Source of the DNA: Mayamaea pseudoterrestris
Taxonomy: Eukaryota
Length of the DNA stretch: 64,000 bases
NCBI GenBank assembly: GCA_027923505.1
Contig: BROI01000035.1
Span: forward strand, 1-64,000
Direction: 5' to 3'
In this document: positions 12,507 to 20,989 of the stretch, one piece after another
How the letters are laid out: each line of letters starts with the position of its first letter
How positions within the stretch are numbered: position 1 is the first letter of the stretch
Made by a program: the position numbers and the translations under genes
Notes under the pieces: model-generated
Databases searched by the model: none
Told to the model about the DNA's origin: nothing
Seen by the model: only the letters and a program-made list of their open reading frames with translations

Positions 12507-15274
<2,768 letters not shown>

Positions 15275-15321: not shown

Positions 15322-16014
15322 CTAAAGACCAAACCGGTCAAGAAGCAACATTTTCTTGCGTTCCAGCATGGCCTCGTCAATTACTTCTATGGAAGGCACG
15401 GCAAGATAGTCCTCGTCGTCGTCGTCGTCATTATCTGACTGCACACCTGTTCGTTTAACTCCCCTTTTCCGATCAGCTATGGCTTCAAGTTCTAGCAATA
15501 CTCCATCCTCTTCGTCGCCCCCTCCAAAGTAATCGGGCGTCAAATTTTTGTGCAAATCCATTGGTTTCTGTAGATTCCGCTTGGCTTCTTCCTTGGCAAG
15601 GAGCTCCTTGACACCAGGAAGGTCCTTGGCCGCTCCAAAATAACGATAACCTCCAAGCTGCAAATCTCCTTCTTCTACTTGTCGCTTCCGTTCAATCGTA
15701 TTGTAATCCAAACCTCCAAGTTCCTTGATGCGTCGATTCCAGTGCCATTTTTCTCTTATCAAATGATTGATTTCATCGTTTAACTCTCGAATCGCATGCT
15801 CCCCCAAGCCTGGATTTTGGATCTTGCTGACTCCGTCCGCGATTTCTCGAACTATTTGATTGCGAAAGCGCTCAGCGTCAACTAAATGTTCGCAGTCTGA
15901 CGCCAAGTGTGGCCGCTTGCGGTTCGTCGACGACGAAAAAGACTTGGAGCCTTGCTCGCGGAGTTTCACCCATTTGTTCATCATGGCGCGAGCCTTTTCT
16001 GCGGGACGAGCCAT
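15322..16014 (-). CDS. ISY1: Pre-mRNA splicing factor ISY1
   Basis: MARPAEKARAMMNKW, IRELNDEINHLIREKWHW...ELGG, GYRYFGAAKDLPGVKEL. Confidence 0.92.
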   Translation of the reverse strand: MARPAEKARAMMNKWVKLREQGSKSFSSSTNRKRPHLASDCEHLVDAERFRNQIVREIADGVSKIQNPGLGEHAIRELNDEINHLIREKWHWNRRIKELGGLDYNTIERKRQVEEGDLQLGGYRYFGAAKDLPGVKELLAKEEAKRNLQKPMDLHKNLTPDYFGGGDEEDGVLLELEAIADRKRGVKRTGVQSDNDDDDDEDYLAVPSIEVIDEAMLERKKMLLLDRFGL

Positions 16015-16273
16015 GATTAATATTGCTATATTGAGGGTAGTGGGCTCGATGGATCAATGGGAGATGAAAGTCAACATGCGAGGAAGGACAAGCGAATGTC
16101 GACCAAGGAATTATTATTACTGCGGCGAACGAAAGGCTCCTTGTCTCAGCGCGACTGCCATGCATAGCTATGTGCTCGCTGCGGCGAATAGCAGAAGGTA
16201 GGTTTGATGCGCGGCGGCATTTTTTTGTAGAAATAAATTGTCACAAACAGTTAAGCCTTAACCAAAACTCCTA

Positions 16274-19200
16274 CTACGCAATGAGCTTTCCTATTCGATC
16301 GTCAGCGAAATCATCCAGCATGTTCTTGTTGTGCACTGAAGCAAAAGCGTCCGATCCGTCCTTTCCTGCTAGTTCAAGAATCGAAAGTGGTCCAGCAGGA
16401 TGCTCTTTATAGTTCGTAAGGTGTGGAATATTGTCGTCAGAAAGATGCAAGCAAATGTACAAGCGATAACAACGACTCCTATTGTCTTCTTACCTTCCGC
16501 AAATTCCGTCAAATCATAAACGTCACCATGTATTGCGACCCAGCAGTCGTCTGGAGTACAATGCTGTTCGAGCTCTGACAGAGGCACATTCCGAGTTGCT
16601 TGTTTGGAAGCTGTCCTATCGGGCTGGATGAATGATGTAGGTAAAATCGTCGACGACCTTACAGGTAGCTTCGTCCCGACGATTGTTCCAAATACTGTGC
16701 ATTCCAGCAACGAATTCCCTCCAAGACGATTGACGCCATGAACGCCACCGGTGACTTCGCCAACGGCATGTAGCCCTGGTATTGAATCGCCGTTTCCCTT
16801 GAGTACGTTGCCATCTCTGTCAATTGTTATTCCTCCCATACAATAGTGAAGGACGGGCGTCACTCGACCGACATAAAATGTCTCCTTGTCAAGATCATCA
16901 GACGGTGCTCCTCGAAAAGAAACTTTCCCGAAAGAATCGTTGCCTTGTTTTGCATCAGCCTGGTATGCTTTCAGCGTGCTGAGTATGGTGCTTTTTGATA
17001 GCCCAGTGTGGTTAGCTAGTTCGCCAACCCCGGTAACTCGTGTCAACAAGCCTTTATGAGTATATAAATCAACATGCTTTTTGCCGTCCAGTGCGGCCGA
17101 AGATGACAATACAAGGAAAAATGTGGGAACCGTGGCTTCGGGATCCCACTTGCCACTTTGGGCAAAGTTTGCATTGTGCGCGAGCATCTGTTTAGTTATA
17201 TACGACCGAGTTCCGAGTTCATTGCAAAAACGACTTCCGTACTCGTTTAAAAGTATCCCACCAACACCTCGCATAAGTTCGGCGGCGAGAACTTTTGTCG
17301 TTGCATTAGGATTGGCCGGATCCACCCATCCAGTCGGGTGTACTTGAATTTTATCCATATCGACTACAGCCGCACCCAAGCTGGCGGCAAGGGATATACC
17401 ATCGCCGGTGGAAAAGTCGCCCGCCGTCGTCGGCATTCGCAGCAGTTCTGGACGGTATTTCTCGAGAAAAGAACCGGCCGAGCGATCCGCCGCGAAACCG
17501 CCTGTTGCCAGCACAACGTTAGCTGCGCGTAGCTCTCGAGCCATCTCGTTCGACCGCATAGAAGCAACCTTAACGCCAGACACTCTCCCGTTGTCGTTCA
17601 CCACAATCCCCGTCACCTTGGTGTCAAGCAGGATATTCAAATTTCCTGACTTTTCATACTCTTTAATTGCCTTTTGTAAGCCGTATATTATCTCCGCTCC
17701 GGCCATGCCATTCGATGGTCGATGCGTTCGTTTGGCGGAATGACCTCCTAATTGCGCAACGAGCGACAAATCAACACCGACCCGTTCCTTGAGCCACGTG
17801 ACAGCCGTTTCACTGTTGTTTATGAGCACCTCAATCAGATCGGGGTGAGCTGATGATCCAGCAGACTTTAAAGTATCATTCCAGAAAGCCTCACGTGTAT
17901 CAACTGCTGTGTCAGTATCGTTGTTAGGACAGCAGGCGTTAATGCCAGAACTGGCTTTGTTCGAGTTGCCGCCCAACAGATGCTCCTTTTCAATCACAAC
18001 GACCCGACCGCCACGATCCAATACGTTCAAAGCAACTGTCAATCCGGCCAGTCCGCTTCCTATGACGATAACATCAGGCTCATCATCCTTGCTACTGCCA
18101 TTGACATCGTTGAGAATGTCTGTTTGTACAAGCATGTGAATGAACTTATCAGGGTCCTGTCCATAGTGCTTGCATAAAATCATCAAAGCCGTGTTGCGCT
18201 GCAAGGCATGCTGCACCAATTGTGTTTCTTGATCAAGCACTAATAGTCCTTGCCTTCCTAATTCCGCTACTAACCCGACGACCTGGTCGACTGCCTCCAA
18301 CTCTGACATCGCTGACGAGGACAAGATTGTATTGGTAGCATTCAATGCTCGTCCAGGAGCGGCACCCGACCGGAGAGTCGGACCCACGGTCACATCGGCA
18401 CCGCTATCATTCTTTACGTACAATCTCGTCAAAGTCCTTACGTCTCGAATAGCCTCGCTGACTTTGGCAATCGTATTGATCAATGCCACGATTTCGTTGC
18501 GAGTCAACCATTCGGTCACCTCGCCAGTCAATGATGTTGACGTAGATCGCATCAACTCTTTGCTAAAAAGTAACTTAAGCGCCGTACCATACCCCATCAT
18601 ATGTAGCTTGCCATGAAGTTTGCATTGCTGACATTGAACGCAGTCGAGGATGGACGAAATGTTGTGGAAAACGCCTTTAAAGGTTCGTTGCAGCTCGGGT
18701 GCGTCCGTCTTGTCTTGAAACATGATGCTTTCGTCGAAAGCTGCAAACACGGAATTGCAAGATTCCAAAATGGAAGAATCAAGCAGTCGATGCAGTAGAA
18801 CAGTTGCCGTTTCATCTTGAACAATATTACCAGTTCGAATTAAATCTGGCTGCCTCAACAGAGGCGCCGCCTTATGCAAGGCTCGAAGCAAAACAACATA
18901 CGTAAAGTGCAAGTTGCGGATATAGTCTGGCGAGTCCTTGAAATTCTGCATAAAAAACTCTGGATTTGCTTCCCAATCAGTACGCTGCTTACGCTTGGAA
19001 GGGGGATAGTAGTGCATGGCAATGGAAATGGTAGTGGCCGAATGCATGGCGCTGAGTAGCTTGTACAGGACTCGCTGCTCGATGCAGGTGGATGAATCAA
19101 CGCTTTCGCGAGAGCCAGATCCATTCATTATGGCTAAGCTGTCCGCCATGCAATTTTCTTCGTAAATAGCCCTCCAAATGTGCGTTCCATTATAACCAGT

Positions 19201-19935
19201 GTTGCGCTCGGGGTTAAGCGTGAGGTCGATTGTGGTGGGTGAATCGTCCTCGTGCTGGTGACACATATCTAGCCAAAAGTCGTCTGGAAGACCTTCACAA
19301 GACGAGTCGTCAGTAGGATCATCAAAAGTAGATTGTGGAACATGCTTGGTGAGGAGTGGTACCGTATGATGTGGCGTGTCAACCTTCTTCTTGACAACTG
19401 TGTCGCTATGCTTCTGCCAGGAGAATGTATCCTTCTGCTGCTGACTGTCGAAGCCGGCCCTTGAAAGCGAGTAAAGAGCATTTGACTCAAGAGATTGCTG
19501 CGACGTGAAAGTTCCTCCTCCTCCGCCAAATGGATTGCTATCATCAGGGGTCACGGTACATAATGGCTCGGCGTCGATGTCGAGCTCCTCAGCACCTCCG
19601 GAGCATTCAAATTCGTCGTCCGCTTCATCGGCGTCATCACCGTGTTTCGTCTCAGGAGCCCAGCTCGCCAGCGGACATTTGCGATTCAAATCAACTTGAA
19701 ATGTTTTGAAATAGTTCGTCTTGGTAATATCGCGCAAGATGGAGTAGAGCTGTGAGTCGTTGGCTTCCTCCAAATCTTCCACGTTGCACTGCGCATCTTC
19801 AATCGGTCCCAAACTCAGAAAAAACGGTGATGGTGATGCGTAAATGGACTCGAATCGACTGCAACAAAGGCAAAGAAGAGTCCCCAAACGTCTGAAGCGG
19901 CGTCGAGAGCGAGGAGATTGGTATGTTTTGCTCAT
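16274..19935 (-). CDS. Fusion protein: Ero1 ER oxidoreductin + FAD fumarate reductase (Osm1/Fcc3 type) + cytochrome b5; intron 16405-16493
   Basis: Ero1 motifs: YFKTFQVDL..KCP, DLTLNPERNTGY, IWRAIYEENC, SAMHSA, NISSILDCVQCQQCKLHGKL. Reductase motifs: VIGSGLAGL, GGNSNKASSGIN, QVHPT, HYCMGG, NRLGGNSLLEC. Cyt b5 motifs: DCWVAIHGDVYDLTEFAE|EHPAG...AGKDGSDAFASVH. Start is 19935 or 20019. Confidence 0.9.
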
Positions 19936-20242
19936 TATTTTATCTTTCGATTGTGTGATGTATGTTCGCCCATGGTCGTTTTTTCGAACGCCAAAGAACA
20001 CGTGGAATGTGTCCGGCATGTCGCTCCGTTTCCGTTTTAGCTATTGGTACACTACTCGAAATACCATATTGTGCCGCTCTACAATCATCGATACACTACT
20101 ATCAAAGTATTAGCACATGAGGGCATATGTTTCAAAGGTTTTGATTGTTTATATTCCTCGCTAGTTAGCGTAATTATAGAGGCTGTTATTTATGTTGATT
20201 TGCGAAAGGTCAAGTTGCTCAACGAGCGAAAACTCACTTCAT

Positions 20243-20989
20243 TTACGATGAAGCAAAGTGCTCAAAGATTCCCTTACCGTCTGTCAACTCTTGCGCCATG
20301 AAGCCAGCGGCGGCGAGCATGCCCAAGCGTCCATTCTGGAGCTCCTTGGTCTGCATGATCTTCAAGGATTCAGGGTCCTTTGGCTTCAATCCGAGTGGGT
20401 CGAAGCCAAGATCACCAGGCACGTACTCGGCGCGGAGCAAGCCTGGCTTGTCAACTGGGCACTCCTTGGGAGGCACCCATCCAACACGGGCGCGGTCAGT
20501 CTCGAGGCGCGCAATGGCAGCAGCAAGGACGGCCCAGAATGGAACAGGCACCTGGGGGAGGTGGTTGATGGCGGGTCCGTGAATGGACGCATCAAAGAGG
20601 AAACTGGAGCCTTCGACCTTTTCGCCGACAAGGAATCCAACAGCTGCAAGCATGCCGACGCGTCCGTGCGTGATTTCGGCCTCGCGGTATCGCTTGAGGG
20701 TGTTCTCGTCAGCCTTGCCAGCAAGGTTGAGCGGGTCGAAAACATTAGGGAAGGGAGCAAGGGCTCCAGGAATCGTATCAACAGTGAAAGGAGTCGACCT
20801 GATGGTATGAATATGTGTGAGGGACGAAGATTTTGTGTTAGTGTTTGGGCGTTGTGTGGAGCCGCAGACACGCAGACACAGCAACAAGCACACTTACAAT
20901 TTCTCGGCACCCTTCGACTTTCCAAACGAGAAGGGTGTGTTGAAGGCAGACGCCGAGGCGAGGAGGGCAAGGGAGCAAGCAATCTTCAT
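20243..20989 (-). CDS. LHCX: Lhcx (LI818/LHCSR-like) photoprotective fucoxanthin-chlorophyll protein; intron 20799-20897
   Basis: Presequence MKIACSLALLASASA-F; LKRYREAEITHGRVGMLA, EGSSFLFDASI.GPAI.HL.QVP, PGDLGFDPLGLKP, KELQNGRLGMLAAAG. Confidence 0.92.

Follow-up and report, generated by a model that had tools for sequence, protein, structure and literature searches.

How does a diatom that has fused its thiol-oxidising flavoenzyme to a fumarate reductase dispose of the electrons taken up in disulfide formation? The question is raised by a gene of Mayamaea pseudoterrestris located at 16274..19935 on the minus strand of contig BROI01000035.1 (GenBank assembly GCA_027923505.1), within an analysed window that comprises positions 1 to 64,000 of that contig, and in which an Ero1 domain, a soluble fumarate reductase flavoprotein and a cytochrome b5 follow one another. 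Ero1 oxidises PDI and hands the electrons via its flavin adenine dinucleotide (FAD) to O2. The means by which Ero1 can be reoxidised without O2, and by which the H2O2 made by Ero1 can be limited, are open matters in the field of oxidative folding, and the yeast pair of Ero1 and Osm1 is the only worked example. An earlier note on this stretch, made from its letters alone, had read the gene as a single three-domain fusion that makes disulfides with fumarate as the acceptor, and had set it in hypoxic niches such as sediment or biofilm, or else had credited it with avoiding the release of peroxide. As described below, we regard the gene and its architecture as real with near certainty. The overall reading, an endoplasmic reticulum (ER) disulfide generator with a built-in fumarate sink reached via b5, is the one we favour with moderate confidence.

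The coding region was defined from its open reading frame together with a splice reading. A stop-free frame occupies 16369..20040 on the minus strand, the strand on which all features of the gene lie; the start ATG is at 19935..19933, and exon 1, which holds 1147 codons without a stop, ends at 16494 directly after the residues EFAE. An 89-nt intron of phase 1 with GT..AG borders (16405..16493) interrupts the cytochrome b5 domain, and exon 2 (16404..16274) terminates in a TAG at 16276..16274, such that the two exons comprise 1190 codons and the stop. The spliced product of 1190 residues is identical at every letter to P0003, deposited at NCBI as 'hypothetical protein MPSEU_001065700 [Mayamaea pseudoterrestris]'. 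It begins with a signal-like segment, followed by the ERO1 domain (residues 62-498), a helical tail, the fumarate reductase (621-1076) and the cytochrome b5 (1119-1190). The Pfam families ERO1, FAD_binding_2 and Cyt-b5 are all matched by the product, and each of the motifs on which the earlier note had built its case was found (CVQCQQC, HPTG, E..RG, ELGTR, HYCMGG, NRLGGNS, EHPAG and SVH).

Evidence from transcripts was drawn from four public runs (X1-X4), all from one study and with a library type that is not on record, whose contigs were placed on 16000-20300. In three of the four (X2, X3 and X4) contigs skip 16405..16493 exactly, which confirms the 89-nt intron that had been placed ahead of the b5 part. 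In the same three runs, single contigs start within the reductase, pass through the linker and enter or cross Ero1 without a break (17242-19905 in X3, 17495-19904 in X4 and 17417-18947 in X2). Run X1 retains the intron and spans 16000-20300 by two long contigs plus two short variant contigs joining them; the long contigs extend past both ends of this interval, in the manner of DNA. Contigs break near 17240-17417, where short alternative contigs differ at four positions (17365-17416), differences that we take to be allelic bubbles or strain differences. The limits of the spliced-type contigs, near 19904-19943 and near 16213-16251, agree with a transcript some 3.7 kb long whose start is close to the annotated ATG. 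A further in-frame ATG at 20019 on the minus strand, 28 codons before the annotated start, probably lies outside the transcript, because the spliced-type contigs end at about 19904-19943 and because X2 and X4 are without depth at 20032-20175. The runs also carry alternative letters at many sites, and in X1 9 nt are inserted after 19961, on the upstream side of the ATG; these too are taken as allelic or strain differences.

As such, this is a nuclear diatom gene that is expressed as a single unit. An assembly chimera, or a chance read-through of two adjacent genes, would be the obvious artefact to produce such an arrangement, and we consider it vanishingly improbable: an exon of 1147 codons is free of stops, the spliced contigs run across the junction between Ero1 and the reductase, the intron-retaining run X1 covers the stretch independently, and more than 100 homologues, some of them from transcriptomes, have their domains in the same order. 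The claim of one gene and one reading frame for all three domains was thus borne out by the reading frame, the splice, the junction-spanning contigs and the homologues together.

These homologues were gathered in two ways. A search with the full-length protein, in which scoring covered the 8000 candidates with the most words in common, returned 310 proteins at E <= 0.001. Among the matches listed, 120 of 120 carry ERO1 and FAD_binding_2, and by a reading of the match table all but one (a 931-residue fragment) also carry Cyt-b5; some are MMETSP transcripts marked complete. The same order is found in more than 100 diatom proteins, and the fusions with names derive from pennate and centric genera (Epithemia, Cylindrotheca, Nitzschia, Stephanodiscus, Mediolabrus, Thalassiosira, Skeletonema, Cyclotella, Asterionellopsis and Detonula). 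An exhaustive search with the Ero1 domain alone yielded 325 cluster representatives at E <= 1e-30; within the best 150 of the 325, 30 representatives are at least 998 residues long, 28 of these 30 combine ERO1 with FAD_binding_2, and 21 of the 28 also possess Cyt-b5. All three domains were confirmed in a fusion of 1132 residues from the haptophyte Prymnesium parvum, and other haptophyte matches come from Emiliania and from a Chrysochromulina tobinii fragment annotated 'ero1-like protein precursor fumarate reductase'. A 134-member cluster at 90% identity (P0430), made up of triple fusions of 1153-1293 residues, includes an Ostreococcus lucimarinus 'predicted protein, partial' of 561 residues, and the diplonemids Namystynia karyoxenos and Diplonema ambulator contribute fusions that are transcriptome proteins and thus possible contamination. 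Diatoms, haptophytes, the Ostreococcus-containing cluster and the diplonemid transcriptomes together contradict the notion of a fusion without homologues in relatives. As judged from these matches, the architecture has been deposited with names that are automatic or say little, and its carriers belong to several eukaryotic supergroups. The backbone of a quick tree built from 41 Ero1 domains is without resolution, sequences labelled 'solo' in it may be fragments, and the tree gives no basis for deciding between one and several origins, or for gene transfer. For the assessment of conservation we aligned 82 full-length fusions, and used a second set of 27 distant fusions, each from a different 50%-identity cluster.

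The Ero1 domain (18442..19752) matches PF04137 over nearly its entire length (profile positions 1-353 of 354, E 1.5e-81, 274.8 bits against a cut-off of 27), and its best solved relatives are human Ero1-alpha (3AHQ/3AHR, E about 8e-49) and yeast Ero1p (1RP4, E 3e-32). The inner active site C432-V-Q-C435-Q-Q-C438 (18622..18642), a CxxCxxC motif that aligns with CVGCFKC of human Ero1-alpha, has its three cysteines kept in 82 of 82 fusions and in 27 of 27 distant ones. The cysteines of this domain that are invariant in the 82 fusions are C87, C111, C126, C225, C262, C284, C393, C432, C435 and C438, and the cysteine pairs which we take to be C85-C391 and C208-C241 in the human numbering have counterparts in the fusion by alignment. 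The shuttle pair of human and yeast Ero1 is a CxxxxC motif. A candidate for this outer pair in the fusion is C111-x14-C126 (19558..19605), invariant in the 82 full-length fusions (82/82) and situated in an acidic loop that is predicted to be disordered, with a predicted local distance difference test (pLDDT) score below 50. A fungal and a copepod Ero1 have CxxxxC, whereas the two cysteines are separated by 14 residues in this protein, by 11 in Prymnesium and by more in other algal and protist Ero1s; C111 and C126 may act as the shuttle pair. In the fusion of Thalassiosira rotula, a second, similar C-x14-C motif lies upstream of the first.

Between Ero1 and the reductase lies a stretch that the earlier note had described as a helical linker. 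An AlphaFold2 run on the full-length protein with the 82-row alignment gave a model of mean pLDDT 73.4 and a predicted template modelling score (pTM) of 0.55, in which the Ero1 core, the reductase and the b5 are confident, and in which residues 1-50, most of 93-228, 514-543 and 1101-1108 fall below a pLDDT of 50. In this model a long C-terminal Ero1 helix (479-515) is followed by a disordered segment (514-543) and then by a small helical domain (residues 545-611, 18103..18303), for which the pLDDT of 10-residue blocks is mostly 86-94, dropping to 71-73 at both ends. D550, E570 and Y591 of this domain are invariant in the 82 fusions, and the domain is otherwise partly conserved. Since the alignments of single-domain Ero1 from Pavlovales and Cladocopium extend into the linker, it resembles a tail belonging to Ero1 more than a simple spacer.

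The reductase domain (16708..18075) is of the soluble Osm1/Fcc3 type and covers the FAD_binding_2 profile in full (PF00890, E 1.8e-81, positions 1-414 of 414). The match to yeast Osm1 (5GLG) reaches E 2.3e-89 and takes in chain residues 6-463 of 471, and that to Fcc3 of Shewanella (1QJD) reaches E 2.7e-61. In a study of yeast Osm1, mutagenesis showed H281, E301, R304, R326, H435 and R477 to be needed (PMC6242907). Mapped through the 5GLG alignment (chain numbering plus 30), these residues correspond to H866, E886, R889, R910, H1030 and R1070 of the fusion, all six of which are invariant in 82 of 82 fusions; in the distant set the first five are found in 27 of 27 and R1070 in 25 of 27, the exceptions being P0450 and P0447. 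The Fcc3/Osm1 catalytic set that the earlier note had picked out by eye is therefore retained. On the strength of this sequence agreement we propose that the flavoprotein domain reduces fumarate to succinate. FAD_binding_2 is a broad family, and urocanate reductase (6T85) is a solved relative of the domain at E 1.5e-55, such that a substrate other than fumarate, for instance urocanate or another enoate, has to be considered; however, Osm1 is a far better match, and the six residues kept throughout the 82 fusions are those by which Osm1 and Fcc3 bind fumarate and protonate it. We hold a different substrate to be very unlikely.

A second feature of Osm1 has fared differently. According to the same study, Osm1 has a second pocket for free flavin made of nine residues, five of which make direct hydrophobic contacts (PMC6242907). 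Only 4 of the 9 are kept in the fusion, with W295 replaced by T, F297 by V, F362 by L and N359 by H, and with P162 falling in a gap; of the five direct hydrophobic contacts, Y363 is the only one that remains.

The cytochrome b5 domain, whose span of 16277..16581 includes the intron, matches PF00173 in two pieces, one per exon: residues 1119-1146, with which exon 1 closes, cover profile positions 2-29 of 74 at E 6e-8, and exon 2 covers positions 32-73 of 74 at E 1.1e-5. The haem ligands, H1149 of EHPAG and H1172 of SVH, are present in 82 of 82 fusions and each in 25 of the 27 distant ones, and the earlier claim of a b5 with both of its haem histidines is supported by the profile match as well as by these residues. 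P0450 and P0447 are the two proteins without the b5 histidines, and their C-termini look truncated or aberrant; P0450 (1102 residues) has a complete ERO1 domain and fumarate reductase followed by 21 residues only, with no b5, so that it may be a variant that naturally lacks b5 or else a gene model cut short.

The b5 domain also occurs with each of its two partners separately. Fungal clusters in the ESM Atlas combine PF00890 with PF00173 under automatic names such as 'fumarate reductase (NADH)' and 'Osmotic growth protein'. Diatoms themselves possess, besides the fusion, an anchored reductase-b5-b5 class of about 700-830 residues and a class of about 480-530 residues consisting of the reductase alone. 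The former is exemplified by P0288 (Nitzschia inconspicua, 804 residues), P0303 (Seminavis robusta, 761 residues) and P0305 (Cylindrotheca closterium, 782 residues), paralogues that have a basic N-terminus, one hydrophobic anchor segment, the reductase and two tandem b5 domains with no Ero1, and that share 50-52% identity with the fusion in their reductase and b5 parts. Conversely, P0173 (646 residues) joins Ero1, the helical tail and b5 with no fumarate reductase and without the outer cysteine pair; its Ero1 domain groups with an Ero1 of the dinoflagellate Cladocopium (SH-aLRT 100).

With regard to location, the first 33 residues or so (19837..19935) form a signal-like segment with the hydrophobic core LGTLLCLCC, in which the Kyte-Doolittle score over 10 residues peaks at residue 17, with a value of 2.08. 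A similar N-terminal hydrophobic segment is found in 66 of 82 aligned homologues, and most of the others start within the Ero1 domain. No KDEL-type C-terminus was seen in the fusion protein. The protein would thus be a putative member of the secretory pathway, most likely residing in the ER lumen.

Taken as an electron path, this architecture can be read as follows. The Ero1 module would take electrons from PDI-type dithiols via the outer pair C111/C126, from which they would move to the inner C435-C438 and then to the Ero1 FAD. Instead of being passed to O2 with formation of H2O2, or in competition with this, the electrons of the Ero1 FAD would be passed to the fused reductase, where the b5 haem would most likely serve as the port at which single electrons enter, and the reductase in turn would reduce fumarate to succinate, such that the protein would carry its own terminal electron sink. 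The b5 would in this manner take the role of the tetrahaem domain of Fcc3, and that of the mediator which is possibly missing in the yeast Ero1-Osm1 couple. A haem is favoured over a free flavin as the point of entry because the second flavin pocket of Osm1 is mostly lost, and because b5 recurs with each partner, as reductase-b5 and as the Ero1-linker-b5 protein P0173. We find a fumarate-linked reoxidation of Ero1 to be the somewhat more probable state of affairs, and an obligatory role of b5 as the relay between the two flavins to be a tentative proposition that falls a little short of even. A complex prediction of Ero1 (40-500) and b5 (1105-1190) with FAD and haem returned a score of 0.00; it was performed without controls or a supplied alignment, and speaks neither for nor against binding.

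A number of points weigh against this reading. We infer the electron path, the use of fumarate as the acceptor and the location in the ER from sequence, and the RNA origin of X2-X4 from the splice alone. The packing of the domains against one another is not confidently predicted at a pTM of 0.55. The lack of b5 histidines in 2 of the 27 distant fusions may mean that b5 is not obligatory, or that these gene models are truncated, and P0173 comes from one metagenome contig of 2170 nt and, as noted, has no outer cysteine pair. The reading also presupposes a supply of fumarate into the ER lumen. Furthermore, typical cytochrome b5 potentials lie above that of an Fcc3-type FAD, and transfer from haem to FAD would be uphill unless the b5 is tuned.

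It is also conceivable that the three domains are merely co-located, with the reductase-b5 half acting as a general luminal redox sink for free reduced flavin or other donors, much as Osm1 deals with free FADH2, and fused to Ero1 for joint synthesis and retention, with no intramolecular transfer and with Ero1 operating mostly on O2. The disordered linker stretch at 514-543 and the modest pTM are in keeping with such an arrangement, and the membrane-anchored reductase-b5-b5 proteins of diatoms, which lack Ero1, imply an independent function for the module. In the yeast study, moreover, Osm1 oxidises free FAD, flavin mononucleotide and riboflavin, and thiols were still oxidised anaerobically with a chimera whose binding to Ero1 had been lost (PMC6242907). 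However, the free-flavin pocket of Osm1 is poorly kept in the fusion, in the direct hydrophobic contacts above all, and the recurrence of the same three-domain order with its catalytic residues across diatoms, haptophytes, the Ostreococcus-containing cluster and diplonemids exceeds the needs of co-expression. On balance we consider co-location unlikely, without its being negligible.

A further alternative has the b5 fed from outside the protein, by a membrane cytochrome or reductase, with the reductase-b5 half handling reducing equivalents that do not stem from thiols, or regulating Ero1 instead of reoxidising it. Fungi and diatoms widely possess reductase-b5 proteins that lack Ero1, and these must have another donor. 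Within the fusion, however, the Ero1 flavin is the nearest possible donor, the Ero1-linker-b5 protein without a reductase points to a link between Ero1 and b5, and the yeast data functionally connect Ero1 with Osm1 (PMC6242907). We therefore regard an external feed as decidedly unlikely. What stands of the earlier note's interpretation is the single gene, the conserved order, the catalytic residues and the appeal to the yeast Ero1-Osm1 link, which was apt; the transfer of thiol electrons to fumarate through b5 is a proposal, and the hypoxic-niche rationale is weakened, as set out below.

Whether the fusion is an addition to an ordinary Ero1 or a replacement for it has a direct bearing upon its role. 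No convincing single-domain Ero1 from a named diatom was found among 122 Ero1-domain matches of 261-832 residues, in a search of protein databases rather than of a genome in which the best 8000 word-sharing candidates were scored and about a quarter of the matches carry names. Several candidates for a separate Ero1 were set aside: P0155, a 496-residue open reading frame of Thalassiosira rotula, is identical to the N-terminus of a fusion at 492 of 493 positions and stops before CxxCxxC; P0125 (Nitzschia inconspicua, 565 residues) shares a 90%-identity cluster with a 1177-residue fusion of the same species; P0126, P0131 and P0137 reach no farther than the linker or the opening residues of the reductase; the match of P0129 extends to the reductase start; and P0139 derives from short contigs and ends soon after the Ero1 domain. 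Since every diatom-like Ero1-only match that was aligned ends in the linker, at the reductase start or before, the fusion may be the only Ero1 in diatoms.

This possibility, together with the occurrence of the fusion in open-water diatoms, in haptophytes and in the Ostreococcus-containing cluster, is what weakens the hypoxic niche. The planktonic distribution, and the failure to find a separate diatom Ero1 in that search, suggest a constitutive role over that of a specialised anaerobic backup, and one may speculate that such a constitutive system is valued for making disulfides free of peroxide, or for dark or low-oxygen periods. The most far-reaching form of the proposal is that in diatoms, and perhaps in haptophytes, Mamiellophyceae and diplonemids, the sole Ero1 is wired via the b5 haem to the reductase, with normal disulfide formation in the ER running on fumarate, yielding no H2O2 and independent of O2; we regard this as a real possibility that is nonetheless doubtful.

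The surroundings of the gene are unexceptional. MCM5, in at least two exons (12684-15274, plus strand), and the splicing factor Isy1 (15322-16053, minus strand) lie on one side, and a chlorophyll a/b-binding antenna protein of the fucoxanthin type (20243-20893, minus strand) adjoins the fusion gene upstream on the same strand. Further neighbours encode ubiquitin hydrolase, DUF308, histidine-phosphatase and GNAT proteins, and the flanking genes are ordinary diatom nuclear genes.

Comparison with known systems places the fusion between several of them. Its closest functional model is the yeast couple, in which Ero1, Osm1 and fumarate produce disulfides without O2 (Kim et al. 2018, PMC6242907). 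The binding between the two yeast proteins is given there as weak (Kd 150-200 uM), and the authors consider that a mediator might be missing and that the electron path is unsettled. The fusion and the yeast couple share the same two enzyme families, the proposed thiol-to-fumarate chemistry, a reductase with non-covalent FAD and the six conserved residues of Osm1; yeast Ero1p and Osm1 are separate proteins without haem, whereas the fusion is one polypeptide with a b5. Osm1, which occurs in the ER and also in mitochondria, has the free-flavin pocket of which the fusion keeps less than half, and the outer pair of the fusion is C-x14-C, in contrast to the CxxxxC of a fungal and a copepod Ero1. Fcc3 of Shewanella resembles the fusion in having a homologous soluble reductase whose polypeptide also contains a haem domain, and there the haem feeds the FAD. 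However, that haem domain is an N-terminal tetrahaem of c-type in a periplasmic, respiratory enzyme, whereas the fusion has a single C-terminal b5 haem, and Ero1 upstream. Eukaryotic reductase-b5 fusions share the order of these two domains and have no Ero1, and the diatom paralogues add a membrane anchor and a second b5. Canonical Ero1 (human 3AHQ, yeast 1RP4) has the same ERO1 domain and CxxCxxC motif, with O2 as its acceptor and no fused acceptor module.

No description of an Ero1-fumarate reductase fusion was found in the full-text literature, mostly open-access and supplements aside, nor is one given in the accessible portions of PMC6242907, PMC9516139, PMC6836876, PMC3660698, PMC10407231 and PMC8611851. 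The component enzymes and their functional partnership in yeast are known already; the covalent three-domain form, the haem, the unusual loop of the outer cysteines and the wide distribution appear to be undescribed.

A conserved natural fusion provides independent comparative support for the Ero1-Osm1 partnership, and offers a single polypeptide in which the electron path could be measured. Diatoms and haptophytes are major marine primary producers. If it is true that the fusion is their only Ero1, the textbook scheme in which Ero1 passes its electrons to O2 would fail for a large share of marine eukaryotes. If that Ero1 also normally runs on fumarate, the folding of secretory proteins in these organisms would be tied to C4-dicarboxylate metabolism, implying that the ER membrane allows fumarate and succinate to be exchanged.

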